From Candidatus Micrarchaeota archaeon (GTDB lineage Archaea > Micrarchaeota > Micrarchaeia > Anstonellales > Anstonellaceae): DNA of 50,513 nt. The translations under genes were made by a program, and so were the position numbers. The notes under the pieces were generated by a model. It saw nothing but the letters and a program-made list of their open reading frames with translations. It was not told where the DNA came from and did not search any database. Shown here piece after piece: positions 5,924 to 43,225 of the stretch. The first letter of the stretch is position 1; every line of letters starts with the position of its first letter. Location: positions 1 through 50,513 of the forward strand of contig JAGVWK010000008.1 of the NCBI GenBank assembly GCA_018304295.1. Reading direction: 5' to 3'.

Positions 5924-6127
5924 TTATTCCTTCTTTTTCATCTCTCTGTATTTGTGATATTTCCAAACTCCATTAAAATACGCCAACGCACCTGCAAGCA
6001 TGAGTATTAGCGCCAATATGACATAATCCTTATTAAAACTAAGAATTCCGTAAGCTATGCCTACTGCACCAAGACCCAAGCTTGTTTCAAAACCTGCTTC
6101 CCCAAGCAACAGCCATTTGTCCGCCAT
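5924..6127 (-). CDS. Small two-helix membrane protein
   Basis: GAGGTGA SD before ATG 6127; two hydrophobic segments and a basic tail. Confidence 0.65.
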   Translation of the reverse strand: MADKWLLLGEAGFETSLGLGAVGIAYGILSFNKDYVILALILMLAGALAYFNGVWKYHKYREMKKKE

Positions 6128-6246
6128 TTTTTCACCTCGCAAATCCACTTGCACTATATAACGATAGCCCTTTGTATATAAAAGTTAATGCCGCATACCT
6201 CCTTCTTACCAAAACCTTTATATCCTTTCTTCAAAATAATAAACTC

Positions 6247-6780
6247 ATGTTCAAAAAATTGAATTTGTTTTCAAAAACAGAGATGAAGGCGCTCATTTTC
6301 CTATCTGAAAAAGATGGCGAGCTTTACGAGCTTCAAATAGCGCAAGGCGCAGGCATAAGCGCGGCTTCCGCAAATTCCATCCTCAACAAGTTCAGCAAAA
6401 TAGGGCTTATAAAAAAAATCACAAAGGGCAAAATGTCCTTTTACAGGCGCAACGACGAAAACCCCCTTCTTCGCCAGTTCAAGGTTTTCATTAAGGTAAA
6501 CTCCCTGCTGCCGCTTATTGAAAAGGCAGTCCCTCTCTGCAAGCGCATAGTGCTTTTTGGCAGCTGCGCAACAGGCAGGAACGGCGAAAAGAGCGACATA
6601 GACCTCTACTTTCTCTCAAGCGAAAAGAATGCGCTGCGCCGCCTCCTAGAATCAGACCCCAAAATACAGGCAATAATACTAGATAGCGTTGAATATTCCG
6701 CACTTTCCAAAAAAGATAAGCCCCTTTATGGGCGGATAAACGCAGGCATTGAACTTTATGGAGGCGAGCCCTATGGATGA
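6247..6780 (+). CDS. wHTH + minimal nucleotidyltransferase (MNT antitoxin-like)
   Basis: N-terminal HTH; LFGSCATG...SDIDL motif; overlaps the HEPN gene. Confidence 0.9.
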   Translation: MFKKLNLFSKTEMKALIFLSEKDGELYELQIAQGAGISAASANSILNKFSKIGLIKKITKGKMSFYRRNDENPLLRQFKVFIKVNSLLPLIEKAVPLCKRIVLFGSCATGRNGEKSDIDLYFLSSEKNALRRLLESDPKIQAIILDSVEYSALSKKDKPLYGRINAGIELYGGEPYG

Positions 6781-7204
6781 GCGCTTCAGCACTTGTTTGG
6801 CAGAAGGCAAGCTCGTAAAAATCGGATTGCAGCAGGACTTGGTGCAAAAGGAGTTTGATGGCGCAGAATTTGACCTCAAAACCGCGCAAACTTCTCTTTC
6901 TGAAAAAAACCACAAATGGGCAAGCGTGCAGGCATACTACTCAATGTTCCACACTGCAAAGGCGCTTGTGCTCAGCAAGGGCTATCGGGAGAAAAACCAT
7001 TACTGCCTGCGCATTGCGCTCAAGGCTCTTTTCATTGACATCCATCTTCTTGAATCAAAATACATTGAAAGGCTGCGCGATTCCATGAATCTGTGCGAGG
7101 ATGCGGATTACGGGCTCATTTATTCAGACAATTCCGCAAAAGAGGCGGTTGCATGGGCTGCCGAATTCCTGCAAGAAGCAAAAAAACTCATTAAAGGCAA
7201 ATAG
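6773..7204 (+). CDS. HEPN domain protein (MNT-HEPN toxin-like)
   Basis: AYYSMFHTAKALV, KNH, ADY motifs; coupled to the MNT gene. Confidence 0.88.
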   Translation: MDERFSTCLAEGKLVKIGLQQDLVQKEFDGAEFDLKTAQTSLSEKNHKWASVQAYYSMFHTAKALVLSKGYREKNHYCLRIALKALFIDIHLLESKYIERLRDSMNLCEDADYGLIYSDNSAKEAVAWAAEFLQEAKKLIKGK

Positions 7205-14994: not shown

Positions 14995-15654
14995 ATGCCC
15001 AAGGAAGAGCACCCCCACATTGTAGTTGACCAGCGGGAACGCTCAGGCGTAAAAGAGCTGCTCTCCTCAATGGGCGCAATAGTGGAAGTGCGCACCCTTG
15101 AAATAGGGGACTTTCTTACCTCGCAGCGCACATGCATAGAGCGCAAAACGCGAAATGATTTTGAAAGTTCCATCCTTGACGGCAGGCTCTTTTCGCAGCT
15201 TTCCCAAATGAAGCAAAACTACGAATGCGCAATAGTGGTTGTGGAGGGAGACGCCCCAACGGAAAGCCGGCTTTCACGCGCAGCGCTCCTTGGCGCATAC
15301 TCATCAGTAATGGCTGATTACGGCTGCTCGCTTTTTTTCACCCGCTCCCTTGAAGCAACCGCGGAACTCGTGCATGCAATCTCAAGGCACGAGCAGCTGG
15401 CGCGAAAATCCCCTCTTCGCGTATATGCAAAAAAGAAAGCCCTCACGCCCTCGCAGGCGCAACGGGGCATAATGGAGTCCCTTCCGGGGGTCGGCCCAAC
15501 GCTTGCAAAATCCCTGCTCAAATACTTCTACACAATAGAGAACGCAATTACCGCCCCTGCAAGCGAGCTTGCGCAGGTGGAGAAAATGGGCGAAAAAAAG
15601 GCAAAGGAAATAAGAAGGCTTCTCACAACCCTTTACAAGGAAGAAGATGACTAA
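14995..15654 (+). CDS. ERCC4/XPF (Hef-type) nuclease with HhH motifs, no helicase domain
   Basis: VDQRE, GDF, IERKT..DF, LPGVGPTLA. Confidence 0.93.
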   Translation: MPKEEHPHIVVDQRERSGVKELLSSMGAIVEVRTLEIGDFLTSQRTCIERKTRNDFESSILDGRLFSQLSQMKQNYECAIVVVEGDAPTESRLSRAALLGAYSSVMADYGCSLFFTRSLEATAELVHAISRHEQLARKSPLRVYAKKKALTPSQAQRGIMESLPGVGPTLAKSLLKYFYTIENAITAPASELAQVEKMGEKKAKEIRRLLTTLYKEEDD

Positions 15655-15878
15655 AGCAGGTTTTCAAATTCTTCCCTTGCCATGTGTAAATCTTTTTTGA
15701 TTATTTTGAGCAAAAGCCCACGCCCTATCGTTTCCCCCGCATGGCAAGGAACAACTGTTGCCCTCCCATCCGGATGCGAAAAAAACATGTGGCTGCCTTC
15801 TTGGCGCACAAGGATAAAGCCTGCCTTTGCAAGTGCTTTGGCAATCTCCTTAGCGCTAAGAAGCGGCAGTTTTGCCAT
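15651..15878 (-). CDS. HicA family toxin
   Basis: RQEGSH...TVVPCH...GLLLKI. Confidence 0.9.
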   Translation of the reverse strand: MAKLPLLSAKEIAKALAKAGFILVRQEGSHMFFSHPDGRATVVPCHAGETIGRGLLLKIIKKDLHMAREEFENLL

Positions 15879-15879
15879 T

Positions 15880-16086
15880 TTAAACCTCAAGTAGCTGCAA
15901 ACCCACAAAACGCTCAGTATTTGGCGCAGGTTGCCTGCACTTGACATACAGCGCAATCGCCTCCTTGGTGCGCTTCATAAGCTCATCAAGATTTTTCGCC
16001 TGCGTGTGGCAGCCGGGAAGCTCAACTACTTCCGATACAAAGCAGCCGTCCTCATCCTGCTCTATGAGCACATTATAATTCGCCAT
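15880..16086 (-). CDS. HicB family antitoxin
   Basis: ELPGCHTQAKNLDELMKRTKEAI. Confidence 0.9.
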   Translation of the reverse strand: MANYNVLIEQDEDGCFVSEVVELPGCHTQAKNLDELMKRTKEAIALYVKCRQPAPNTERFVGLQLLEV

Positions 16087-18397: not shown

Positions 18398-19447
18398 TCA
18401 CAACTCCTTGTAGCATCCAAGGAAGCGGAACATGCCGCTTTCCTTTTGCGTTTTTTCCAGCGCATCTTTCACATTCTTGTCCTCGTCGCTTCCTGCAAAG
18501 TCAATTATGAACCCATACTCCCCAGTCCCATTTTTCATCGGAAGGGATAGAATGCGCGTCAAATTTATTTTTGCGTCCGCAAGTATCTTCAATATCCCAA
18601 AGAGCGCGCCTGCCTTGTGTGCGGTTGTGAAGGCAATCGTGCACTTGTCCCCTTTTTCCTTTGCCTTTTCCCGCGACACAACAAGGAACCTCGTTGTGTT
18701 TGATGCATGGTCCTCAATGTTCTCCTTTATTATCTCCAGATTGTAAAGCCGCGCACACAGCGCGCTTGCTATTGCTGCCGAGCCCATCGGTTTTTGTGAA
18801 GCAACCATTTTCGCAGCCCCTGCGGTGTCGTAAAAGGGCTTTGGCTCAAGCTTGTTGCGCGCAATAAAGCCAGCGCATTGCGCAAGCGCCTGCGGGTGCG
18901 AATACACGCTTCGTATCTCCCGATAATCCATGCCGGAAGGCGCAAGAAGGCAGTGGTGCACGGGCACTTTCACTTCCCCTACAATGTGCAGCCCCGACTC
19001 CATAAGAAGTTCGTTCACTCCTGCAACCGGGCCTGCCAAGGAATTTTCAACCGGCACAACGCCCAAATCCAGCTCCCCGCTTTTCACAGCCTCAAACACC
19101 TGTGAAAATTCAAGGCAGGGAACTGGCACCGCGTTTTTAAGCGCGCCTGCGGCAATCTCGCTGTACGCCCCATGCTCCCCCTGAAATCCCACAAGCACAA
19201 GTTCTTTTTTCTGAAGCTCTTTTCCTTCCGCAATGAGCTCGGACACGATTTTCCTCCCAAACTCCGCACTCACGAGCCCGTGCGCCTTTTTCCCAATTGC
19301 CCCAAGCACCTGCTGCTCCCGCTTTCCATCCGTAACTTCGCCCTTAAACCTTTTTGTGCGAAGCGAAAGCTCCATCCTCCTGTCCATGAGCCTCAAAAGC
19401 TCAACGTCCAGCCCGTCAATTTTTTTCCTCACTTCGTCCAAGTCCAT
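18398..19447 (-). CDS. pheA: Chorismate mutase/prephenate dehydratase (P-protein)
   Basis: AroQ N-terminus, FQGEHGAYSE, PVENS, SHPQALAQC, NTTRF, ACT domain. Confidence 0.95.
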   Translation of the reverse strand: MDLDEVRKKIDGLDVELLRLMDRRMELSLRTKRFKGEVTDGKREQQVLGAIGKKAHGLVSAEFGRKIVSELIAEGKELQKKELVLVGFQGEHGAYSEIAAGALKNAVPVPCLEFSQVFEAVKSGELDLGVVPVENSLAGPVAGVNELLMESGLHIVGEVKVPVHHCLLAPSGMDYREIRSVYSHPQALAQCAGFIARNKLEPKPFYDTAGAAKMVASQKPMGSAAIASALCARLYNLEIIKENIEDHASNTTRFLVVSREKAKEKGDKCTIAFTTAHKAGALFGILKILADAKINLTRILSLPMKNGTGEYGFIIDFAGSDEDKNVKDALEKTQKESGMFRFLGCYKEL

Positions 19448-19451
19448 GCGC

Positions 19452-20780
19452 TCACCCTAGAATTTCTTTTGCAGGCTCGTAAGAGCCAATGTGCACCAGC
19501 CCCTGCCATCCTGCAATTTTTCCAACTCCCTCTTTCCTGTCAAACTCAACAACAAACTTTTCCCCATCCCTTTTCACTTTATATTCAGTCCTGCCCTGCA
19601 GCAACTCCCCAAGCCTCTCACGCACGTCATCTTTGAGCGCAGACAAAAGGTTTGCCATATGGCGCTCTGAGAATACTCTTGTTATTTCTGCTCCTGCATT
19701 CCTAATGCCATTAAGAAATAACGCAAGATCTTTCATGTCTGGCAGCCCAATTGAAACAATGTGCCTGCTGCCGCCCATCTCAGGCATTTTTGCCTCAAAA
19801 ATCAAGAAGCGTGTCCTGTTTGTCGGGTCATTTTCCAGATTACTTCTTACAATCTTAAGCCCGTAAAGCTGTGCGCACACGTTTCTTGAAATCGCGCCCG
19901 TTTCCCGCAATAATTCAGATGCAACCTTCAATGATGCACCCGCTGTATCATTGTGCTCAACAGCCTCCCATCCATTTTCAGCTATTGCATTGCTGCATTG
20001 CTTGAGCGCTTGTGGATGCGATAAAACGATTTTTATGCCACTAAAATCAGTTTCAGGCAGAGCAAGCAGGCAGTGGTGAATTGGCAAAATTATCTCTCCG
20101 CTCACTCCAAGCGAAGTATTGGCAAGTAGCAAATTTGCATTTTCAACAGCCCCTCCAATTGAGTTCTCAATCGGCACTTCCCCAAAATCAAAAATACCCT
20201 CTCCAACCCCCATGAGCACCTCTTGGAAGCTGCCGCAGGAAATGGGGATTGCCTTCTTATTCTGCGTTTCTGCAGCCAGCTCTCCATGTGCGCCCGGCAT
20301 CCCCTGATAAGCAGAAAGCATTGGATTTTCATTCAGCAGCTTCACTGTCTCGTCTATTATCCTTCTAAAAAAACTTGAGGCAACATTTGGACTCCATGCA
20401 CCTCTGGATGCATCCGTAACTCTTCCTAGCACTTCAATTTCACTGAACGACCACGGGTGCGCGGAAGCCTCTGCCTTTAGGCAGCGGAGGAGCGCACCCG
20501 CACAGGGAATGTTGTGGCTTCCGCCTGAAGCCCTTCCGCAATCTTCGCGGAACCTGCAAATCGGCGAACCGATTTGCGGTCCACTTTTCGCGGAAAGCGA
20601 AAAGTCGGAGCCACGGGCTTCAGCCCGTGGTCGTTCACGCTTAAAGTCGCTCACACCAAGCCCGCCTATTCTCTTGAGTCTGCCCACAACTAGCCCAAGC
20701 TCCATGCGTCTGCGCAGCTGGTGCACTATCAACAGGTCATTCGCATCAATTTTTCCCCTGATTTCTGCCAAGTTCGTCAT
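19452..20780 (-). CDS. Second, divergent chorismate mutase/prephenate dehydratase carrying a 65-aa in-frame insertion
   Basis: AroQ-like N-terminus, YQGMPGAHGE, PIENS, SHPQALKQC, NRTRF; degenerate ACT domain. Confidence 0.85.
   Translation of the reverse strand: MTNLAEIRGKIDANDLLIVHQLRRRMELGLVVGRLKRIGGLGVSDFKRERPRAEARGSDFSLSAKSGPQIGSPICRFREDCGRASGGSHNIPCAGALLRCLKAEASAHPWSFSEIEVLGRVTDASRGAWSPNVASSFFRRIIDETVKLLNENPMLSAYQGMPGAHGELAAETQNKKAIPISCGSFQEVLMGVGEGIFDFGEVPIENSIGGAVENANLLLANTSLGVSGEIILPIHHCLLALPETDFSGIKIVLSHPQALKQCSNAIAENGWEAVEHNDTAGASLKVASELLRETGAISRNVCAQLYGLKIVRSNLENDPTNRTRFLIFEAKMPEMGGSRHIVSIGLPDMKDLALFLNGIRNAGAEITRVFSERHMANLLSALKDDVRERLGELLQGRTEYKVKRDGEKFVVEFDRKEGVGKIAGWQGLVHIGSYEPAKEILG
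20444..20638. mobile_element. 195-nt non-autonomous palindromic element with IS200/IS605-like ends
   Basis: 14-bp terminal inverted repeat TGAACGACCACGGG/CCCGTGGTCGTTCA; subterminal hairpin CCACGGGC-TTCA-GCCCGTGG ending in TTCAC; inserted 3' of TTCAC; removal restores KREIEVL. Confidence 0.8.
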
Positions 20781-20781
20781 G

Positions 20782-21809
20782 CTAGCCCTCTTTCCTGCCT
20801 GCAAGCACAATGTCCGCAATGCAAAATGCCGCAACGTTTTCCACAACAGGCACCGCCCGTATGCAAATGCACGGGTCGTGCCTCCCCTCTATTTTCAGTT
20901 TTGCGCTTTCCATTTTTTCCAAGTCCACTGTGTTTTGCTCGCGGAAAACACTTGATGTAGGCTTGAATGCAACGCGGAACACAATCGGCATCCCTGTTGA
21001 AAGCCCGCCCAATATCCCGCCCGCATTATTTGTTTTTGTTGCAATTTTTCCATCCACAATTACAAACTCGTCATTGTGCGCGCTCCCCTTCATGCGCGCA
21101 GCCTCAAATCCCGCCCCAAACTCCACTCCCTTTGCGGCAGGTATCGCAAATACCGCCTGCGCGATAATGCTTTCAATGCTTGCGAACATCGGCTCTCCAA
21201 TCCCAGCAGGCAGCCCAACAACTTTGCATTCCACTATCCCTCCCACAGAATCCTGCTCCCTAATTGCATTTTTCACTTCCTCCTCCATCTGCGCCGCAGT
21301 TTTTGCATCCGGGCACCTAACCGCATTCGCGTAAGTTCCTTTCACTATTTCCTCTTCACTTGGCTCACCTTGCAGCCTCACGTTTCCAAGCGCGCGCATG
21401 AACGCCAGTGTGCGCACCCCTTTTTTCTCCAGCACTTTCTTTGCAACCGCGCCCGCCATCACAAATGCGGCAGTCATCCTGCCGGAAAAAAACCCTCCGC
21501 CGCTTTTCACTTGGCCGTATTTCACTATCGCGGGGTAATCTGCATGCCCCGGTCGGGGCATCCTTGAGAATTTTGCGTAATGCCCCGGGCGGGTGTCCTT
21601 GTTTTTCACAAGCATGCGCATTTTCCCCCCAGTAGTTTTTCCATTTTCAATGCCGCTTTCAATAACAACGGTGTCCTCCTCCTTTCTCTGGCTTGTGAGC
21701 GCGCTCTGCCCGGGCTTTCGCCCCCAACGTGGGGCCCATGGCTGCTGCCAAACACTTCCAATTTGAAGTTTTTCCCAAATGAAAATGCATTTCCCATTTT
21801 TTCCATCAT
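20782..21809 (-). pseudogene. aroC: Chorismate synthase with internal deletion + frameshift near 21721-21725 (may be an assembly artefact)
   Basis: FGSSHGPHVG in one frame joins RKPGQSALTSQRKEED...PRPGHAD...GRHDPCI in another; roughly 25 conserved codons are missing. Confidence 0.85.
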
Positions 21810-23050
21810 TCCACCCTCAATTTTTCCAAATCCCCAAAGAAATTCGGGTATGATTTTGCAACGCACTGCGCATCCTGTATTTGCACATCCGTGTTGCTTG
21901 CAAGCGCCGCAACCGCGCATGCCATTGCAATGCGGTGGTCCCCATGCGACTGCACGCTGCCGCCTTTTAGCTCTCCTCCCTCCACGCGCATCTCATCCCC
22001 CTGCACGCCAACCTTTGCACCCATTGCAGTGAACTCTTTCACAAGCGCAGCAGCCCTGTCGCTCTCTTTGTTTTTTAGCCGCCCGGCTCCGCGCAACACG
22101 CTTCTCCCCTTGCAGCTGCACGCAAGCGCAACAAGGGGCGGGAACAAATCCGGGCAATCCGTTGCATCAAATTCAAGCGCCCTAAGGCTTGCTTTTGCAA
22201 CCGTTATCGCATTTTCCTCCTGCAGAACTGTCGCCCCGGCATCCTTGAGCGCATCCACTATCACCCTGTCAGCCTGAAGCGATTTTTGCGCAAGCCCCTC
22301 CACCTTCACTTCGCCCGCTATCGCGCCTGCAACAAGCATGAATGAAGCGCCCGACCAGTCTCCCTCAATTTCCACGCTTGCAGGCTTGTATTGCTGCCCG
22401 CCTTTTATTGCGAACCTCTCCATCGTTGCATCCGCCCCAACCTCAACCCCAAACTCCTGCAGCATCTGCAACGTCATGCGCACGTACGGCCTGCTTTTGA
22501 GGCTTTCAACGTGCAAAAGCGAATTTTTTTCGCACAAAGGAAGCGCCATCAAAAGCCCGCTTAAAAGCTGGGAGCTTTTTGAGCCGTCCATGCGCACCTC
22601 CCCCCCTTTCATTTTCCCGCTTATTTTTACAGGCGCATGCCCGTTTTGAGTTTCGCACCGCGCCCCAAGCGCAACAATCGGCGCTTCAATTCCCCCAAGC
22701 TGCCTCTCCCCAAGCGTTCCTTTTCCAACAAGCGTGAATTCCCCATCAAGCGCAGCTGAAATTGCGCAAAACATTCTCATGCACAAGCCGGACTCATCGC
22801 AGTCCAGAGTTCCAGAAGAAGTCGCATTGCCTCCCTTTATCGCAACCTCTCTTTCCAGCATTTCAACCTGTGCCCCAAGGCAGCGTGCAATCCCAAGCGC
22901 AGCAAGAGCGTCCTCACAAAACGAGGGGTTCCTTATAATGCTCTTTCCCTTTGCAAGCGCCGCCGCTGCAACTGCCCTTTGCATCATGCTCTTTGAAGAA
23001 GGCGCGCGCATTTTACCGCACACGTTTCCAGAAGGTATTTTTTCCATCAT
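21806..23050 (-). CDS. aroA: EPSP synthase
   Basis: PSSKS, SSQLLSGLL, EGDWSGA, KESDR, DHRIAM, KSYP. Confidence 0.96.
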   Translation of the reverse strand: MMEKIPSGNVCGKMRAPSSKSMMQRAVAAAALAKGKSIIRNPSFCEDALAALGIARCLGAQVEMLEREVAIKGGNATSSGTLDCDESGLCMRMFCAISAALDGEFTLVGKGTLGERQLGGIEAPIVALGARCETQNGHAPVKISGKMKGGEVRMDGSKSSQLLSGLLMALPLCEKNSLLHVESLKSRPYVRMTLQMLQEFGVEVGADATMERFAIKGGQQYKPASVEIEGDWSGASFMLVAGAIAGEVKVEGLAQKSLQADRVIVDALKDAGATVLQEENAITVAKASLRALEFDATDCPDLFPPLVALACSCKGRSVLRGAGRLKNKESDRAAALVKEFTAMGAKVGVQGDEMRVEGGELKGGSVQSHGDHRIAMACAVAALASNTDVQIQDAQCVAKSYPNFFGDLEKLRVE

Positions 23051-24363
23051 GGCTTTCCAACCCCTATTTCCATTGCTATCATGCTCGCAACTTCCTGCGC
23101 GGTTTTGCCCCCAGTATTCACCATTATGTGGCAGGCTCGCGCGTAAATTTGAAGCCTTGCTTCCAATATCCTGTGCGCAACCTCCTCTTTGTCCTGCCTG
23201 TTTACCAGCGGCCTGCTTGCATCGCCCTTTGTCCTTTCCATTGCCTCTTTTGCGCTTGCAAAAAGCCACACCACAAAGCATTCCTTTTGCAGCAGTTGCG
23301 CATTTTCCTCCCTAAGGACAATGCCTCCCCCGCACGAAATAACGCAATTTTCTTTTTGCACTGCCTCTTTGAGCGCTTCAGCTTCCATCTCCCTGAAACT
23401 AGCCTCGCCCGCCTGCTCAAATATTTCCGGAATGCTTTTCCCTGCGCTTTGCGCAATCATCCCATCCGTTTCCACAAATTCAAGCCCGCACAGCTTTGCC
23501 AAAATCTTTCCAACAGTGCTCTTGCCGCTTCCCATGAACCCTATGAGCGCAATCCTACGCCTGCTTTTCGCATCAGGCCGGTTTTCAAGCACCGCCTTTC
23601 TCATTGCTTCAAGGGGCGCATCTTTCCCTGTGAATTTCCCAAACGCATCAATGCCTTGGAACAGCACCCAGCTTGTCGCATCAACTATTTTGCACCCCGC
23701 CTCTTTTGCATCCGCAACAAGCGCGCTTTGCGCAGAGTAGTTCGCATCCAGCACCACCATGCCCTGCTTAAGCATCCTTTTTGGCACCACCCTTTCATGC
23801 GCGCTTATGCATGAAACAAGAATGGCCGCGCCTTCAAGCGCGTTTTCCAAATCCCCTTCATTTACAGAGCACGCTTCGCACCCAAATATGCGCGCAGCCT
23901 CCTTTGCTTTTTCAAGCGTCCTGTTTGCGCACACTACTTTTGCGCCTTGTTTTGTGAGCGCAAGGATTGCGGCTTTTGCAGCCCCCCCTGCCCCAAGCAC
24001 AACCGCCTTTTTGCCCCTTATCCCTGCACCCGCGTCTATGAGCGCACCTGCAACACCTTGCGGGTCCGTATTGTACCCACTGCTTTTCTTGTTTTCAAAA
24101 ATCAAGGTGTTGCACGCACGCAGCAGCTTCACTTCTTCGTTTTTTTCATCCACCTTGCTTGCAATCCCCTGCTTTAGCGGCGCAGTGATGCTCATTCCTG
24201 CAATTCCCATCTCCTTTGCTGCGGAAAAAACATCGTCCGCATCCTGTGCAAGCATGCGAAAGTATATCGCATCAATCCCCATTGCATCAAACGCGGCCTG
24301 ATGCATCTGCGGGCTAATGCTGTGCGCTATCGGCTTTCCTGCAACTGCAAACAATTTCGTCAT
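23047..24363 (-). CDS. aroE: Shikimate dehydrogenase-shikimate kinase fusion (AroE-AroK)
   Basis: HSISPQMH, ITAPLK, NTD, GAGGAA followed by GFMGSGKST, SCGGG, RPL. Confidence 0.93.
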   Translation of the reverse strand: MTKLFAVAGKPIAHSISPQMHQAAFDAMGIDAIYFRMLAQDADDVFSAAKEMGIAGMSITAPLKQGIASKVDEKNEEVKLLRACNTLIFENKKSSGYNTDPQGVAGALIDAGAGIRGKKAVVLGAGGAAKAAILALTKQGAKVVCANRTLEKAKEAARIFGCEACSVNEGDLENALEGAAILVSCISAHERVVPKRMLKQGMVVLDANYSAQSALVADAKEAGCKIVDATSWVLFQGIDAFGKFTGKDAPLEAMRKAVLENRPDAKSRRRIALIGFMGSGKSTVGKILAKLCGLEFVETDGMIAQSAGKSIPEIFEQAGEASFREMEAEALKEAVQKENCVISCGGGIVLREENAQLLQKECFVVWLFASAKEAMERTKGDASRPLVNRQDKEEVAHRILEARLQIYARACHIMVNTGGKTAQEVASMIAMEIGVGKP

Positions 24364-27997: not shown

Positions 27998-30127
27998 TCA
28001 TATTTTTTCGCCTTCCATTTGCGCAACATGCTGCACGTCCTTGTCCCCCCTGCCTGACAAATTCACAATCACAACCGGCATTTTTCCTGCACCCTTCGTA
28101 GTACTCCCCACGCCACCCAATCCGCTTGCGCCAAGCGCAGTGCGTGCCCCACCATCCAATCCACCTTCTCCAAGCGCAGCCTCTGCAGCAAGCGCACCTT
28201 CCCTTAATTCTTTTGCAAGCTTGGGCAAATATGCGATTGCATGCGCGCTCTCAAGCGCTGGTATTATTCCCTCCATTCTTGCAAGCAAATGAAACGCCTC
28301 AAGCGCTTCCTTATCCTCAACGCAAACATATTGCGCCCTTTTTAGCGCATAAAGGTGCGCATGCTGGGGCCCTATTGCAGGATAATCAAGGCCAGCGGAT
28401 ACAGAGTGCGTTTCCCTTATCTGCCCATCGGCATTCTCAAGCACATAAGTGAGCGTCCCGTGCAGCACTCCCAATTTTGCATCCCCGCTTATGCGCGCCG
28501 CATGTTTTCCGGTTTGCACCCCCTCCCCGGCAGCTTCCACTCCGACCATTTTCACGCCCTCATCCTGTAAAAACGCGCCAAAAAGCCCTATCGCATTGCT
28601 GCCTCCCCCGACGCACGCAAGCAGGCAGTCCGGCAGCCTTCCCTCATCCGTAAGTATCTGCTCGCGAGCCTCCTTCCCTATCACGGATTGGAAATGCGCA
28701 ACAATGGACGGGTAGGGATGCGGCCCAAGCGCAGAGCCAAGTATGTAATGCGTATCCGCAAAATTCGTTGCATAGTCCCTTAGCGCCTCATTCACCGCAT
28801 CCTTTAGCGTGCGGCTTCCTGCCTCCACTATGCGCACATTCGCGCCCAGCATCTCCATCCTATAAACATTAAGCTTCTGCCTTTTCGCATCCTCGCTTCC
28901 CATGTAAACGTCGCATTGGAGCCCAAGCAGCGCGGCAGCAGTCGCAGTCGCAACCCCGTGCTGCCCTGCCCCTGTTTCCGCAATCACCCGTTTCTTTCCC
29001 ATGTATTTTGCAAGAAGCGCCTGCCCTATCGCATTGTTTATCTTGTGCGCGCCGGTGTGCAGCAAATCCTCGCGCTTAAGGTAAATCCTCATTCCTAATT
29101 TTTCGCTTAAATTCCCTGCAAAATAAAGCGGCGTTGGCCTGCCGGCATATTTTGACAAGTAGTGCGAAAGCTGCTTGTTGAACTTTCCGTCTTTTTTTGC
29201 ATCCTCAAACGCTTTTTCCAGCTCTTGCAGCACAGGCACAAGAAGCTCGGAAACATAGGTGCCTCCGAACTTCCCGAACCTTCCGGAACTTGATGCCATG
29301 CATCCGATTTTTTCCCCCGGCGCCCCGGCATCTTTGCTGCCACCTACTGCCTCTGTTTTTGCCGCAGTCGCCCCTTTGAGCTCAAGGATTTTCTTTTTCA
29401 AATCCTGCGCAGTCCATATTGCAGTGCCCACAAGTATCCCGCTTGCCCCAGTTTCCCTAAGAAATTGCACGTCCTCTTTGCCCCTCACGCCGCTTTCGCT
29501 TACAAGCGGCTTTGCAATGTTTGGGAATTTTTCCATTATTTTCTGCGTGCGCCGCAAATCCACTTTCAGGGTTTGCAAGTCCCTGTTGTTTATGCCCACA
29601 ATGTCCGCGTCCGTTTGCAGCGCGCGCTTCATTTCCCCCTCATCATAGCATTCAAGGAGCACCTCAAGCCCAAGTGAGTGCGCACGTGCAATGAATTTGC
29701 GCACGTCAAGCTTTTCCCTCTCCAGCACGCGCATCACAAGAAGCATGCAGTCCGCGCCGCTTGCCGCGGCCGCCTGCACCTGCCTCTCATCAAGCACAAA
29801 ATCCTTGAAAAGGACCGGCAAGCCGGTTTTTTTTGCAATTGCAACGTTCCCCAAGTCCCCCTTGAATATTCTCGGCTCAACAACAACTGAAATCGCATCC
29901 GCGCCGCACTCCAAAAATTCCCCGGCAGCCTGTCCAACGTCAATCCCGCGCATCTCATATTCCCCTGCAGGGGATGCGTGCTTTATTTCGCAAATAAGGC
30001 AGAATTTTCCGCCTGTTAATTTTTCCTTCAACGAACTCCGCTTCACATTTTCCGCTTTTGCCCCTTCGTAGTAGCCCGCCCGCACATTCTCTTTTGCCTG
30101 CGCAATGAATTTGTCAAGAATGTCCAT
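27998..30127 (-). CDS. trpB: Indole-3-glycerol phosphate synthase fused to tryptophan synthase beta (TrpC-TrpB)
   Basis: EIKHASP, FKDF, GINNRDL, ESG, then [36 protein letters not shown] in one frame. Confidence 0.93.
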
Positions 30128-31193
30128 TGTAACCACGCAACTGCTCCAGCTTTTGCATTGCTTTTCCCTCATCAATTGATTTTGCCGCAAGCTCCACTCC
30201 CTGTTTTAAGCTTGCAGCAATCCCGCTTGCATAAATTGCGCCAGCCGCATTGAGCAGCACAACGTCCCGCGCAGCGCGTTCCATTCGGGCTTGCCCCTCC
30301 GCCTGCCCAACAGCCGCTTTTTCCGCATTTGCACCCTCTTTCCTGCCGCCTTTCCCTTCAAGCACGCCAAGAATGATTTTCGCGCTCTCTTGCTTTCCGC
30401 TTGCCCTTATCTGTGCAAGCGAGCTTCTTTGAATCCCGAAATCTTCTGGAACAATTTCGTTTTTTTCAATGCCTTTTCCGCTTGCTTCACAAATTACCGT
30501 GGGCGCGCTTGCTGAAATCTCGTCCATATCCGAGCACACGACAAGCGCCTTTTGCGTCCCAAGCTTTTGCAGCGCAAGCGCAATTTTTTCAACAAGCGCC
30601 TTTTCGTACACCCCGACAACCTGCCTTTTTGCGCCCGCAGGGTTTGTGAGGGGCCCAAGCACATTAAAAACAGTCTTGAAGCCCAACTCCCTTCTCACCT
30701 GCGCAACCGCTTTCATTGCAGGGTGATAAAGGGGCGCAAAAAGGAAAGTTATGCCAATCTCTCCAAGCTGTGCCTGCGCCTGTTTTGCATCAACGCTTAT
30801 TTTCACCCCAAGCTCCTCAAGCACGTCCGCGCTTCCGCTTTTGCTTGAGGCAGCCTTATTGCCGTGCTTTGCAACCCTTGCCCCCACCCCTGCCGCAACT
30901 ATTGCGGCGGCAGTTGAAATATTGAAAGTGCCGCTCCCATCCCCGCCAGTGCCCGCCGTATCCACCAAATTCTCCAAGCTTGTTTCCACCCTCACCGCCC
31001 TGCCCCTCATCACATTTGCAAACGCAACAATCTCCTCAACCGTTTCCCCCTTTGCGGCAAGCAGCGCAAGAAACGCGGCAATCTGCGAAGGGTTAACCTG
31101 CCCGTCCATTATCGCATTGAGCGCGTCCGCTGCCTCATGCCCGGATAAATCCCTCGCCTCTATGAGTTTTTTCAAAATTCCGTCAAATTCCAT
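30114..31193 (-). CDS. trpD: Anthranilate phosphoribosyltransferase
   Basis: [32 protein letters not shown]. Confidence 0.96.
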
Positions 31194-37251: not shown

Positions 37252-37530
37252 ATGGACATTAAAGTGCGAGTTACGAAAGATGGCGATTTATTGGTTATCT
37301 CAGCAGTGGATCTAAATATAACCACTCAAGGCCGCACCATGGAAGAAGCAAAGGCAAATCTAGTGGAAGCGATAACTTTGTGCCTAGAAGATTCCGATTG
37401 GAGAGAATCGCACAATATCCAATCGAAAGAAAAGACAGAATTTCGGTCAGAAGAAAAAATGCCGAATATCGATTGGGAATCCATATGCTTGGGAAAAAAT
37501 TACCGGACGTCTCTGGTTTTGCCGTCCTGA
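37252..37530 (+). CDS. HicB family antitoxin
   Basis: ITTQGRTMEEAKANLVEAI. Confidence 0.85.
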   Translation: MDIKVRVTKDGDLLVISAVDLNITTQGRTMEEAKANLVEAITLCLEDSDWRESHNIQSKEKTEFRSEEKMPNIDWESICLGKNYRTSLVLPS

Positions 37531-37724
37531 AGGCTTTTTGCAACAAAATGGGCTTTGCCGAAAAGAGCAGACGTGGCAGCCATGTTCTCATATGTGGCTC
37601 GCTAAATGGAAAAAAAGTCTGTTTTCCAGTACCTTTGCACGATCGTTTGTCTAAATACACACTTGTTGCAATAATACGGGAATCGGGTTTGACCAGAGCG
37701 GAATTTCTGGAGTTATTTAAATAA
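37485..37724 (+). CDS. HicA family toxin
   Basis: RRGSH...VPLH...TLVAIIRESGLTRAEF. Confidence 0.85.
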   Translation: MLGKKLPDVSGFAVLKAFCNKMGFAEKSRRGSHVLICGSLNGKKVCFPVPLHDRLSKYTLVAIIRESGLTRAEFLELFK

Positions 37725-39809: not shown

Positions 39810-39948
39810 CGTTTTGCCTTGCATCTCGCCTTCTTTTTTTGCCTCGTAAAAGACCAAAACGCTTTTAATGCTTTTATGCCCAATGCCTTTTGGCGATCAG
39901 GCATAACGGCAGCAAGGGCGTAAAATAAGTCCCAGAGCAGGGTTGGCA

Positions 39949-42900
39949 ATGATATTCCTATCCAGAATACGGATGCGCGGCTTCAAGTCTTTCAAGAACG
40001 CAGACATCTCCCTCTCGCGCGGCTTTATTTGCCTTGTAGGCCCAAACGGCTCGGGCAAGTCCAACGTAACAGACGCAATACGCTTTGCGCTGGGGGAAAG
40101 CGCGCTGCGCTCTTTGCGCGCAAAAAAAGTCTCAGAGCTCATCAATACCTCTTCAAAGCATGCGGAAGTTACCATTTACATAGACGGCGATCGCAAGCTT
40201 GAGGTAAAGCGCGCCATAAAGGACGACGGCAAAAGCGGCAAATGCATTTACCGCATAAACTCAAAGCGCGCAACGCGCGCAAGCGTTATGGAGGCACTGC
40301 GCCCGCTCGGCCTTGAGGTGGGCTCCCACAACATAATAGCGCAGGGGCAGGTGCAGCGCATAATAGAGCTCAATGCAAAAGAGCGGCGCGCCGTGATAGA
40401 TTCCGTTGCAGGCATAAGCGAGTTTGAGGAGAAAAAGAAAGAGGCAATGAACGAGCTTGAGAAGGTTGAGCGCAAGATTTCAGACTCCGGCATAATACTT
40501 TCCGAGCGCGTCGCATATTTGGGCGAGCTTGAGCATGAGCGAGATGCGGCGCTTGCGCACAACGACGCAACTGAAAAACGCAAAAGCGCGCGCTACACAA
40601 TAGTGAAGCGCGAGCACGAGCACCAAGGCAGGCAGCACTACGAAATTGCGCAAAAATCCATAAGCGCAAAGGCGGAGCTTGAAAAAGCCACCCTTGAGCT
40701 TTCTTCCTTGGACTTGCAGATTTCCTCCCTTGAGGCGCGCCGCGTGGAACTGTCCGCAAAAGTGAATTCCCAAAGCGCGCGCGAGGGCACGCTCAAGCAA
40801 ATAGAGGAGCTTCGCGTTTCCATTTCCGCCTCCACTGCCTCGCTTGCTGAAAGGAAAAAAGACCTTGCGCGCATTGTGGCGCGCCTAGGCGAACTCTCCT
40901 CAAAAAGGGCTGGGCAGAAAAACAAATCCCTTGCGCTCAGCGCTGAAATTGCAAAGCTTCGCAAGGAGCTTTCCTCCCTTGACGCGAAAATAGGCAAGAT
41001 GGAGCAGGAGCAAGAGGCAGGCACGGGCACAGAAATCTCCCAGATACGCACCTCCCTTGACTCGCTTGTTTCGCAGTTGCAGCAGCTTCGCGAGCAGCGC
41101 GCCTCCCTTGCCTCCGACATTTCAAAAAGCAAGGAGATGCACTCCATGCGCCTCTCTGAAATACAGTCCATTTCCTCAACCCTTCCAAAGCTTTCGGATT
41201 CGCGCCTTGAGGGCGAAAGGGCGAACTTGGGCGCGGAAATAGATTCAATTGCAAAGGAAATAGACAAAATTTTCTCGCAGGAAAAAGACCTTAACAAAAA
41301 CATCCCACTGCTTGATCGGCGCATGCTTGAGCTTAAGGAAAAGCATGCAATAATGCGCGCAAGCGCATCCGCATCGGCAACCAATCCCGCAATAGCCTCG
41401 GTGCTCTCAATGGGGCAGCACATAAAGGGGATATATGGAACAGTCGCCGACCTGATAAAATTTGAGCCCGAATATGCAAAAGCAATAGAGGCGGCGGCAG
41501 GAAGCCGCCTCACCTACGTGGTCGTTGAGAACATTGACGTTGCAACCGCGGCAATAGACAGGCTACGTTTTCTCCGATACGCTTCTTGTAAAGGACGTTG
41601 CAGCCGCAAAGAAAGTCGGAATAGGCAAGGCGCGCATGGCAACAATTGAGGGCGAGCTTCTTGAGCGCTCAGGCATAATAACCGGCGGAAGCGCAAAAAG
41701 CAGCATACTTTCGCGCACCGCGCTGCAGACCCTTGAGAGGGAAATAGAAAGCCTGAAAAAGGAGCGCGAGGGCGCATATAGCGAGCTTTACTCAATACGC
41801 GAAACCATCTCACGCAAAAGGCGCGAAAAGGCAGAGGCTGAGATAAAGGCAAAGGGAATTGAGCTTGAGCTTGGCAGCATGGAGGCGGCGCGCAAGTCAA
41901 TTGAGTCCCTCAAGAAAAAAATCTCCCTTTTGCAAAAAGGCGCGCAGGAATTGCAGTCTCAAATTTTCCAGAAGGAAAAAAGCCTCGTTTCCCTTAATGG
42001 CAGCATTGACAAGATGCAGCAGGAGCGCGAGTCCCTCTCCTCCTCAATTGCAAGCGCGCAGGAGCTTGAAAAAGAGCAGGAGAGTGCGCAAGCATTGCAG
42101 CTTCGCTCATTGCTAAGCGACCACTCTGAGCTTGATTCTTCCATTAAGGCAAAAGAAAGCGAACTTTCACTTATGCGCGAGCAGGATGGCGAGCTTGAAA
42201 CCGAGCGCAAAAGCCTTTTTGCAGAGCAGGCAGAAGGCAAAAAACAGGCAGAGGCGCTTTCAGCAGGCATTGAAAAAGATTCGTCCCTACTTTCCCAAAA
42301 GGAAGAGGAGCTTTCCCACCTTAGCGCCTCCGCAAAGAAATTCTTTGCGCAGCTAAAAGCGCTTGAAGAGGAACTTTCAGGCATTTCCTCGCAGCGTGGA
42401 AAGTCGCAGTTTGCCTTTGATTCCCTTAACAAGCAGCTCTCAGAGCTTGAGGCAAAAAAAGCGATAATAGAAAGCAGGCTTGCGGACTACGCGGTGGAGC
42501 TTGAGAATTTCGGGCCAAATTTCCCTTCCTTGCTTGACGTGCCAAAAGCGCAGCTTGAAGAGCTCATAAAGGAGTGCGACGCGAAAATAACCTCCCTTGG
42601 CGCAGTGAACCTGAAAGCACCCGAGCTTTACGAGGAAAAGAAAAAGGACATTGACGGGGTGCGCTCAAAGCTTTCCCTTTTGGCGGACGAAAAAACAGCG
42701 GTGCTTCGCATGATGGACGAGATAGACGCAAAGAAGCGCGACATTTTCCTCTCCACCTTCAACGGAATTGCAGCGAATTTCAAGAAGCTCTTTAACCTCA
42801 TTTTCAAGGGCGAGGGAACGCTGCTTCTTGAGCAGCCCTCGGACCCGTTCAATTCCGGGCTGCAGATAAAGGTGCGCGACGAGCGCCACGAGCGCTACAT

Positions 42901-43225
42901 AGATTCCATGTCAGGGGGCGAAAAATCCCTTCTTGCGCTTCTTTTCATATTCGCAATACAGATGCACAAGGCATCCCCCTTCTACATCCTTGATGAGGCG
43001 GACGCTGCGCTTGACAAAGAGAATTCCCGCAAGCTTGCAGGGCTTTTGCGCCAGCTTTGCGCAAATACGCAGTTCATAGTGGTAAGTCACAACGATGCAA
43101 TACTCTCCTCTTCCGACATAGCACTTGGCGTGATGAAGACGGACGACGGCTCAAAAATAGTGGGGATACAGCTCACTACTGCCGCAAACATAGCAAAAGT
43201 GCGCAAAGTGCCGCAAGATGAATAG
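39949..43225 (+). pseudogene. smc: Chromosome segregation protein SMC, split by hinge deletion + frameshift near 41563-41566 (may be an assembly artefact)
   Basis: GFKSF, GPNGSGKSN, hinge GIYGTV, MSGGEK, LDEADAALD; IDRL is joined out of frame to YVFSDTLLV. Confidence 0.88.

Follow-up and report, generated by a model that had tools for sequence, protein, structure and literature searches.

A 50,513-nt stretch of DNA from a Candidatus Micrarchaeota archaeon (the window, here always meaning this whole stretch) carries two adjoining chorismate mutase-prephenate dehydratase genes on its minus strand. One, at 18398-19447, is an intact pheA, matched in Pfam over the whole CM_2 profile (positions 1-80 of 80) and by the PDT and ACT families. 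The other, at 19452-20780 (ORF 19452-20846, ATG at 20780) and hereafter the host gene, encodes a divergent CM_2 plus PDT paralogue of 442 aa. The Pfam match of its product to CM_2 breaks off at position 44 of the 80-position profile, precisely where a net insert of 195 nt lies (20444-20638, minus strand), that is, 65 codons that are free of stops in the host frame and translate as RPRAEARG...HPWSFSE. A first-pass annotation of this DNA had described a stop-free 65-codon insert here whose excision restores DFKREIEVL, and the comparison bore this out. The insert is missing from all eight other CM-PDT sequences of alignment A1 (the neighbouring pheA and seven homologues), and with the 195 nt removed the host protein reads D-F-K-R-E-I-E-V-L with the same spacing as in those eight. 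On the mRNA strand the insert-free junction would read ...AAGC joined to GTGAAATT....

The insert falls directly after an Arg-Glu pair that aligns with Arg51 and Glu52 of E. coli chorismate mutase. In the phmmer alignment D45, R48 and E49 of the host protein correspond to 1ecm chain residues 48, 51 and 52, which, like Gln88, we take to be active-site residues of that enzyme; at the Gln88 position the host protein has Leu where the A1 homologues have Gln. With its helix interrupted at the active site and Leu occupying the position expected of Gln88, the chorismate-mutase module of the 442-aa protein is predicted to be probably inactive, so that an annotation as 'chorismate mutase/prephenate dehydratase' would probably describe a protein with no working mutase. 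The pheA next door could supply the activities of the host gene. Pfam revealed no family in the insert peptide, and AlphaFold returned a pLDDT below 50 over residues 44-114, based on an alignment of 9 rows, of which only the host protein's own spans the insert. Among 8000 scored candidates 75 matched the host protein, none of them a close orthologue with an empty site; besides the host protein itself, the best of these matches were 350-aa pheA-like proteins at 41-43% identity.

The insert is bounded by a perfect 14-bp terminal inverted repeat, in which TGAACGACCACGGG at 20444-20457 is 100% complementary to CCCGTGGTCGTTCA at 20624-20637 (14/14 bp paired). The pentanucleotide TTCAC of the plus strand (GTGAA on the mRNA strand) occurs at 20439-20443, directly 3' of the element in the mRNA sense, where it is a candidate target motif in the host flank, and again at 20634-20638, where it forms the first five bases of the element on the mRNA strand. 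Because of this 5-nt direct repeat, the edge of the element can be placed anywhere within 5 nt, and the element measures 194 nt between the outer edges of its inverted repeat, against a net insert of 195 nt. In this single copy TTCAC is the sole direct repeat at the element and overlaps the inverted repeat itself, and on the mRNA strand the 14-bp repeat is bordered by AAGCG and GTGAA, with no duplication of at least 2 bp there. The window holds a second perfect 14-nt inverted repeat, seen among the longest 25 of 51 pairs, but 789 nt separate its arms and no gene break is associated with them.

Near-terminal palindromes are found at both ends of the element. A subterminal hairpin at 20454-20500 (stem CGGGTGCGC/GCGCACCCG at 20454-20462/20492-20500), enclosing a small hairpin at 20468-20487, begins 10 nt from one end, and a second at 20611-20630 (CCACGGGCT/AGCCCGTGG at 20611-20619/20622-20630), overlapping the second arm of the inverted repeat, stops 8 nt from the other. 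Between them lie three central hairpins, at 20534-20552 (6-bp stem TTCCGC/GCGGAA, taken from the folds), 20556-20577 (9-bp stem GCAAATCGG/CCGATTTGC at 20556-20564/20569-20577, 4-nt loop) and 20583-20605 (9-bp stem ACTTTTCGC/GCGAAAAGT at 20583-20591/20597-20605, 5-nt loop). The inverted repeat, both TTCAC motifs and all of these hairpins except those at 20468-20487 and 20534-20552 had been listed in the first-pass annotation, and each was recovered at the place it had been assigned.

The GC content of the element is 61.5%, as against 47.1% for the host gene, and its fold far exceeds chance. Folded as RNA, the mRNA strand reached -118.7 kcal/mol (z -8.21); z was -7.68 for the plus strand as RNA and -9.46 for the plus strand as DNA, and in each case 0 of 200 shuffles were as good. 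Two of the six reading frames are open across the element, the host frame included. Since a 65-codon frame is open in 13.4% of 20000 shuffles at the element's base composition, the chance of an insert both in frame and open is about 0.045, which is suggestive, not compelling; selection may have kept the frame open.

A phmmer search of 1.84 billion cluster representatives returned three matches. Two, P0076 (78 aa, annotated as hypothetical, from a Candidatus Micrarchaeota archaeon, MBS3069034.1) and P0077 (120 aa), were the only representatives matched among short candidates (35-210 aa; 2 of 2865 scored), and among longer ones (211-2000 aa) the sole match was the window's own protein; the family is rare in protein collections. 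The third, P0078 (693 aa), is internally repetitive and was judged unrelated (9 short stretches, 44% identity). Two further records, P0079 and P0095, were found as cluster members and not as representatives. The translation of the element recurs in three other contig records (P0076, P0077 and P0079) and in two other 5' flanks: the window has GVSDFKR before the element, P0077 has NAKHFPFC and P0076 MD, and the similarity begins at the end of the element. Encoded by 20520-20606 (minus strand, 87 nt), a core of 29 aa, DFSLSAKSGPQIGSPICRFREDCGRASGG, is invariant in all three sequences of alignment A2, and the corresponding DNA holds the three central hairpins. Ahead of the conserved end P0077 has Cys-Glu and P0076 Val-Asn, which, judged at the codon level, is compatible with a GTGAA end.

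P0076 follows the window in three reading frames in turn, first through VNDHGLKP, then through the core and finally through EATTFPVR and PLPKGR, which is how a stretch of conserved DNA carrying small indels behaves, and not how a conserved protein does. Absence of related copies, or conservation of the 65 aa as protein, had been named by the first-pass annotation as fatal to a mobile element; copies in fact exist in other flanks, and their reading frames shift, so the 65-aa sequence is not preserved at the protein level. P0076 and similar short hypothetical proteins most likely represent the repeat element in translation.

The copies differ in length by modules of about 18 aa. P0079 is identical to the window over 87/87 aa, from the N-terminus of the host protein through codon 38 of the element, then gains about 36 residues common to P0077, and its ORF terminates inside the element; it is apparently the host gene with a longer, ORF-terminating variant at the same site. 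The contig bearing this long allele is 2995 nt long and may have been chimerically assembled across the common repeat core. The short in-frame allele is real, since a second assembly has it: P0095 is identical to the host protein at 441/442 aa, all 65 insert residues included. That the insert is tolerated in a coding sequence, as had been proposed, is supported by this 442-aa ORF being open in two assemblies. The module added in the long variant bears a weak resemblance to the hairpin at 20583-20605 (9/22 aa, E 0.017).

At the DNA level blastn and blastn-short detected no second copy in the 50.5-kb window, the best other matches being 13 nt long with E of at least 0.1. Two peptide patterns derived from A2 gave 61 pattern matches in genome contigs, none of which was confirmed, and a DNA pattern of the end plus first hairpin hit two bacterial loci whose similarity is confined to the pattern. 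Two such loci are about what chance would give by our own estimate. Phage and plasmid collections yielded no match to blastn in distant mode. The ends, the target motif and the lack of duplication are accordingly read from one DNA copy together with comparison at the amino-acid level. Titles and abstracts retrieved with the 12-nt end motifs belonged only to unrelated papers, and in the available text of two papers on Micrarchaeota (PMC8561730 and PMC12892359) transposons, repeats and chorismate are absent save for one reference-list entry.

We interpret 20444-20638, which lies in the chorismate-mutase module of the host gene, as a member of a Micrarchaeota (DPANN) family of small repeats that are rich in hairpins and encode no protein, a reading to which we assign a probability of roughly 0.6. 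We consider it likely that the insert is a non-autonomous repeat element read through in translation, and we lean slightly towards an insertion without target duplication. The repeats represent a new family within a known category of selfish DNA rather than a novel mechanism. Archaeal repeats with inverted repeats, no transposase and no target duplication are known, cores can be deleted, and a single position can be occupied by different repeats (available text of PMC3119063). An enzyme acting in trans and encoded outside the window would have inserted the element beside TTCAC, leaving the target unduplicated, in the AroQ chorismate-mutase module of the second, divergent CM-prephenate dehydratase paralogue. 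As the 195-nt copy introduces no stop codon into the host frame, translation of the mRNA would continue through it; the protein would gain 65 residues with no confident predicted fold, and the dehydratase part downstream would remain translated. The family varies through hairpin modules gained or lost, and the short in-frame copy probably arose, by core deletion or by recombination, from a longer element, which in a related population appears to disrupt the host gene at this very site.

Mobilisation specifically by an HUH enzyme of the IS200/IS605 type is possible but doubtful. Such elements occur in more than 65% of Micrarchaeota genomes according to the accessible part of PMC13343696, and the lack of duplication beyond TTCAC, the subterminal hairpins and the TTCAC end motif are compatible with them. 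On the plus strand the element follows TTCAC and the net gain is exactly 195 nt, although in this one copy a 5-bp duplication also fits. In the available text of bioRxiv 10.1101/2023.03.14.532601, TTCAC is the transposon-encoded right-end motif of ISGst2, a Geobacillus IS605 element that inserts scarlessly and without duplication. In ISGst2 two positions distinguish the flank motif from the right-end motif, and excision was lost when the flank motif was converted to the right-end one (same source). By analogy, the presence of TTCAC as both flank motif and end motif would speak against the HUH reading here. The perfect 14-bp terminal inverted repeat also speaks against it, since IS605-type elements and PATEs are defined in the sections of PMC3119063 available to us as having no terminal inverted repeats. 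As PATEs are described in these partial sources, the element shares with them near-terminal hairpins, absence of target duplication, a conserved terminal oligonucleotide, variants arising through core deletion and a host phylum in which IS200/IS605 elements abound; it differs in its perfect 14-bp terminal inverted repeat, in its identical flank and end motifs and in having no IS605-type parent in the window. Pfam detected no transposase family among the 66 ORFs of the window that were scanned (41 + 25, 11 of them rescanned at laxer settings), and no tnpB or iscB in the same scan. Of the proposal of a non-autonomous, HUH-mobilised element, the first part therefore stood, the insert being an inserted, non-coding, structured sequence with copies in other flanks; the HUH part did not fare as well, given the perfect inverted repeat and the lack of any TnpA or TnpB found. 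Copies were recovered at the protein level as the proposal anticipated, and the TnpA/TnpB parent it had envisaged was not present in the window.

A classic DDE-type MITE, in which TTCAC would be the 5-bp target-site duplication of a 190-bp element with a strongly preferred target, is unlikely. The 190-bp core is indeed flanked by a 5-nt direct repeat, and the terminal inverted repeat (14/14 bp), the small size (195 nt), the lack of an ORF of its own (no Pfam family) and the occurrence in more than one genomic context (three different 5' flanks, at the protein level) are features of classic prokaryotic MITEs, which are likewise small, non-coding and present in several copies. The element's ends also read TG...CA, as is typical of several DDE families. 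With a 5-bp duplication, however, the inverted repeat would no longer be terminal, as four extra bases, TGAA, would stand on one side only. Moreover, the 5' pentanucleotide of the mRNA strand is compatible with conservation in P0076 and P0077 despite their differing flanks, which counts against a MITE because duplicated random targets would not be conserved. In the single copy there is no target-site duplication of at least 2 bp outside the 14-bp inverted repeat, the window encodes no DDE transposase, and no transposon is known to have ends related to those of the element. Owing to the absence of a duplication outside the inverted repeat, the insertion pattern appears to fit an IS200/IS605-type HUH element or a haloarchaeal small mobile repeat better than a cut-and-paste DDE element.

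The element might instead be PATE-like and encode a working omega-RNA, or another small RNA, for a TnpB or IscB encoded elsewhere, which we regard as highly unlikely. PATEs often encode omega-RNAs (available text of bioRxiv 10.1101/2023.03.14.532601), about 190 nt are conserved, highly structured and end at a TTCAC boundary, and IS200/IS605 elements are common in the phylum (PMC13343696, in part). Rfam nevertheless gave no match at the gathering score on either strand, the window has no tnpB or iscB, a flank motif equal to the element's own end motif would make the occupied site itself a target, and the terminal inverted repeat is atypical. The omega-RNA-like remnant suggested in the first-pass annotation found no evidence: Rfam had no match at the gathering score in the whole window, and with E up to 10 the segment 20300-20800 produced three sub-threshold matches (E 1.5-9.5; 10.6-15.9 bits, as against gathering scores of 40-60).

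An intervening sequence spliced from the RNA, either a bulge-helix-bulge or a self-splicing intron, would leave a mature mRNA for an intact chorismate mutase; a length that is a multiple of three, the exact restoration of the conserved motif, the strong RNA structure joining both ends and the archaeal host agree with this. It has only a very remote probability, because a scan for two 3-nt bulges with a 4-bp helix found a single weak candidate for a 195-nt excision (3/4 central pairs, 3 outer and 0 inner pairs), the ends form an unbroken 14-bp helix, Rfam recognised neither an intron nor a ribozyme family, copies of the sequence, as is usual for repeats, stand in other flanks and can carry additional modules, and the mutase module also lacks a Gln88 equivalent. 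A lineage-specific 65-residue protein insertion that evolved in the gene with incidental palindromes would explain the open frame and the identical allele in two assemblies, yet it appears close to refuted by copies in other frames (P0076) and unrelated flanks, to which the absence of Pfam families, the pLDDT below 50 over the insert, the GC content 14 points above the host gene and the fold z-score of -8 can be added. An intein can be dismissed, as inteins have Cys, Ser or Thr at both junctions and here the insert begins with Arg and is followed by Ile, with no Pfam family.

To our knowledge, small transposase-free repeats have barely been catalogued in DPANN archaea. Our preferred reading, a small repeat family, resembles by category, and as compared by description, the SMR-A and SMR-B repeats of Haloquadratum walsbyi. 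As presented in the available text of PMC3119063, these are archaeal, too short for a transposase and have prominent terminal inverted repeats, no target duplication, an unexplained mobilisation and high copy identity. They measure about 80-110 bp, whereas the element has at least 195 bp and is built of hairpin modules, and SMR-A targets palindromes of IS605-type elements, unlike the copy described here, which lies in a metabolic gene (PMC3119063, in part). Inverted-repeat ends combined with absence of target duplication mark a mode of archaeal mobilisation that is still unexplained.

The Rickettsia palindromic elements (RPE), which PMC10969869 groups with ERIC and BOX as intragenic MITEs in its available text, offer a parallel for the landing site: there too a palindromic repeat sits in frame in a metabolic gene and is translated with the ORF kept. 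RPEs are bacterial and about 150 bp long, and the conserved peptide of each family is in frame in many ORFs (same source, in part). The present element differs in being in a long ORF in only one of three genomic contexts, in having copies read in different frames and in having a long variant with a stop. A peptide of the RPE type shared by many unrelated ORFs was not seen, the window's own protein being the only match among 8000 scored candidates of 211-2000 aa.

A broader scenario, which we consider distinctly unlikely as a whole, is that Micrarchaeota harbour modular hairpin elements with a terminal inverted repeat that insert beside a fixed pentanucleotide with no target duplication, through an IS200/IS605-type transposase acting on an atypical substrate or through the SMR mechanism, that variants swap at one site, and that deletions are selected to re-open the gene; if true, it would provide an archaeal counterpart of the Rickettsia coding palindromes. 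The short in-frame form and the apparent long disruptive form at one site would make a natural test of selection healing broken genes, and the element should be traceable in metagenomes via its spurious peptides. Elsewhere in the window, the glutamine synthetase falls in the same 90% cluster as that of Candidatus Anstonella stagnisolia.

The host gene, a divergent paralogue of the chorismate mutase-prephenate dehydratase gene pheA, lies on the minus strand (ORF 19452-20846) with a likely ATG start at 20780, giving a protein of 442 aa. Pfam analysis placed a prephenate dehydratase domain at residues 157-331 (E 1.9e-46) and a type II chorismate mutase domain at residues 7-50, which covers only profile positions 1-44 of 80 and then breaks off; the neighbouring intact pheA (18398-19447) carries CM_2 (1-80 of 80), PDT and ACT domains. 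Alignment with this pheA and seven database homologues revealed 65 additional residues in the host protein directly C-terminal to the invariant Arg48-Glu49, absent from all eight other sequences, after which the host sequence continues I-E-V-L-G with the correct spacing. The first-pass annotation had placed here an in-frame insert of 65 codons (20444-20638) with an inverted repeat, hairpins and a TTCAC pair, and had claimed that its excision restores the mutase motif; all these features were confirmed in position, and removal of the 195 nt mends the gene. Further downstream, in residues 115-442 (19455-20438, minus strand), an ACT domain was not recognisable by Pfam or in the alignment, the C-terminal region is about 26 residues longer than in pheA homologues, and residues 377-405 have pLDDT <50 in the AlphaFold model.

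The terminal inverted repeat of the element is perfect over 14 bp (20444-20457 and 20624-20637), and the element has four hairpins with 9-bp stems and further pairings. On the plus strand, TTCAC directly flanks one end of the element (20439-20443) and makes up the final five bases of the opposite end (20634-20638). None of 200 dinucleotide shuffles folded as well as the mRNA strand as RNA (-118.7 kcal/mol, z -8.21), the opposite strand as RNA (-114.3, z -7.68) or the element as single-stranded DNA (z -9.46), and its GC content is 61.5%, against 47.1% for the remaining host gene and 50.3% for the window. As a sign that the element exceeds chance, its open frame counts for less than fold and GC: a 65-codon frame of this composition stays open in 13.4% of 20,000 shuffles, and combined with a length divisible by three (chance 1/3) the joint chance is about 0.045. 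Two of the six frames are open across the element, and a 148-aa antisense ORF (20509-20955, plus strand) that reaches over most of it into the beginning of the host gene is probably spurious, reflecting the second of these. The host flanks 20639-20645 and 20431-20437 pair in the RNA fold (ACUUUAA with UUGAAGU, one G-U), so that a small hairpin in the uninterrupted gene would hold the insertion point in its loop; by a rough estimate this pairing is not significant.

The element is a real insertion, representing a new family of archaeal transposase-free small repeats. Searching its 65-aa translation against 1.84 billion representative proteins gave three matches: P0076 (78 aa), annotated as hypothetical and assigned to a Candidatus Micrarchaeota archaeon, P0077 (120 aa), and the internally repetitive P0078 (693 aa), which we regard as unrelated. 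The three-way alignment holds an invariant core of 29 aa, DFSLSAKSGPQIGSPICRFREDCGRASGG, which spans the three central hairpins (20520-20606). The earlier proposal of a mobile element turned on related copies existing and on the 65 aa not being conserved as protein, and it survived on both counts: P0076 and P0077 carry element sequence, and P0076 tracks the window element through three frames in succession (VNDHGLKP in the first, the core in the host frame, EATTFPVR in the first again and PLPKGR in the third). As read from the alignment, these frame changes point to conserved DNA with small indels and rule out a conserved protein. The upstream residues differ (GVSDFKR in the window, NAKHFPFC in P0077, MD in P0076), so the similarity starts at the element end; the codons before the conserved end, Cys-Glu in P0077 and Val-Asn in P0076, would be compatible with GTGAA opening the element on the mRNA strand. 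The stretch separating the core from EATTFPVR varies in length: the window has no extra residues there, P0076 about 18 and P0077 about 36. Part of this extra stretch weakly resembles the window hairpin 20583-20605 in another frame (9/22 aa, E 0.017), and the family seems to be assembled from hairpin modules. The P0077 flank HFPFC before ERPR (residues 10-14) also resembles HFNFT before ERPR on the window plus strand (20430-20443; tblastn E 2.6e-4 for the whole stretch, ERPR included), which may reflect a target preference beyond five bases, or chance.

The family is rare within the searched collections. Besides the window's own protein, protein searches yielded only P0076 and P0077, to which cluster look-ups added P0079 and P0095. 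Two peptide patterns gave 61 pattern matches in 185,579 species genomes, none confirmed; the window's own locus was also missing, its genome evidently not being covered, so further copies in the same genome would be overlooked. One DNA pattern hit two loci, neither similar outside the pattern, and phage and plasmid collections held no element match. We did not see the family described in narrow literature searches, in which the end motifs retrieved two unrelated papers and a term search of two Micrarchaeota papers found no repeats or transposons. Among other identities considered (ALTERNATIVES), Rfam gave no match at gathering score, Pfam found no family within the insert, and a bulge-helix-bulge intron is unsupported. 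Inteins require particular boundary residues, and the insert is not bounded by these. The in-frame position inside an enzyme gene is shared with Rickettsia palindromic elements and some enterobacterial and pneumococcal repeats, as described in PMC10969869.

Pfam analysis detected no transposase among the 41 + 25 ORFs of the window. On the mRNA strand the inverted repeat has AAGCG on one side and GTGAA on the other, and since these differ there is no duplication outside it. We favour insertion without target duplication (probability about 0.55), whereby the 195-nt element would have inserted 3' of TTCAC while itself ending in TTCAC. By category the nearest match is the small mobile repeats of Haloquadratum walsbyi, reported to combine inverted repeats with no duplication, by a mechanism given as unknown (PMC3119063). 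Mobilisation of the HUH type is a tentative proposal: the IS200/IS605 geometry of a left flanking motif, a right transposon-encoded motif, a scarless donor joint and no duplication is matched, TTCAC is the right-end motif of ISGst2 (both bioRxiv 10.1101/2023.03.14.532601), and IS200/IS605 elements are reported from >65% of Micrarchaeota genomes (PMC13343696). However, IS605-type elements and their palindrome-associated derivatives (PATEs) are by the definition in PMC3119063 without terminal inverted repeats, whereas this element has one; and both its motifs are TTCAC, unlike those of ISGst2, which differ and which abolished excision when equalised (bioRxiv 10.1101/2023.03.14.532601). The HUH and omega-RNA parts of the first-pass reading are conjecture. 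The alternative, in which the element measures 190 bp and duplicated 5 bp of a strongly preferred target, is unlikely: four bases would remain unpaired at just one end, and the target would have to be the same in three contexts.

P0079 (153 aa), which clusters with P0077, opens with host protein sequence and is identical to the window at 87 of 87 residues, from the N-terminus past the insertion point up to element codon 38; from there on it follows the long P0077-type variant and its ORF stops within the element. A long, ORF-terminating allele thus appears, from the protein sequences, to occupy the same site in a related population; the 2995-nt metagenome contig encoding P0079 could be a chimera joined at the repeat. 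A different assembly yields P0095, which matches the host protein at 441 of 442 residues, full 65-aa insert included, so the short in-frame allele is reproducible. In its 3' part the window copy lies nearer to P0076 and further from P0079; the short form therefore did not arise from the long one by simple deletion, and recombination between copies or replacement is needed. Both patterns have precedents in Haloquadratum, where such elements have undergone core deletions and where two strains carry different repeats at the identical position (PMC3119063).

In a phmmer alignment, D45, R48 and E49 of the host protein correspond to residues 48, 51 and 52 of E. coli chorismate mutase (1ecm). Asp48, Arg51 and Glu52, together with Gln88, are active-site residues of the E. 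coli enzyme. The host protein has Leu at the position of Gln in the neighbouring pheA and most homologues, the insert splits the helix right after Glu52, and residues 44-114 have pLDDT <50 in the AlphaFold model, built on a shallow alignment; we therefore expect a dead mutase module, with the dehydratase part kept in frame. The adjoining pheA would supply both activities. Next to the host gene, chorismate synthase (20785-21797, minus strand) is split over two frames: its N-terminus (MGNAFSFGKNFKLEVFGSSHGPHVGG...) runs from an ATG at 21797 to a stop at 21606, the match of the remainder to PF01264 starts no earlier than profile position 39 of 327, and about 20 profile positions are missing in addition to the frameshift. 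Either the gene is a pseudogene or the assembly is at fault here; a real break would interrupt the pathway upstream of the host gene.

According to Pfam, the window also encodes A-type ATPase subunits, a short XPF/ERCC4 nuclease and archaeal ATPase_2/DUF234 proteins. Its glutamine synthetase shares a 90%-identity cluster with that of Candidatus Anstonella stagnisolia (Micrarchaeia), and on this sequence likeness the host organism is treated as an Anstonella-like Micrarchaeota archaeon. SMC is split between overlapping plus-strand ORFs (39943-41646 and 41636-43222) within the hinge domain, the first covering hinge profile positions 2-49 of 116, by a frameshift, a split gene or a sequencing error. 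Two gene fusions lie on the minus strand, one of indole-3-glycerol-phosphate synthase with a tryptophan-synthase-beta-like PALP domain (28001-30190, 730 aa) and one of shikimate dehydrogenase with shikimate kinase (23050-24363, 438 aa). A nucleotidyltransferase/HEPN pair (6082-7201) and two HicA-toxin-like ORFs (15654-15956, minus strand; 37380-37721) were also found.
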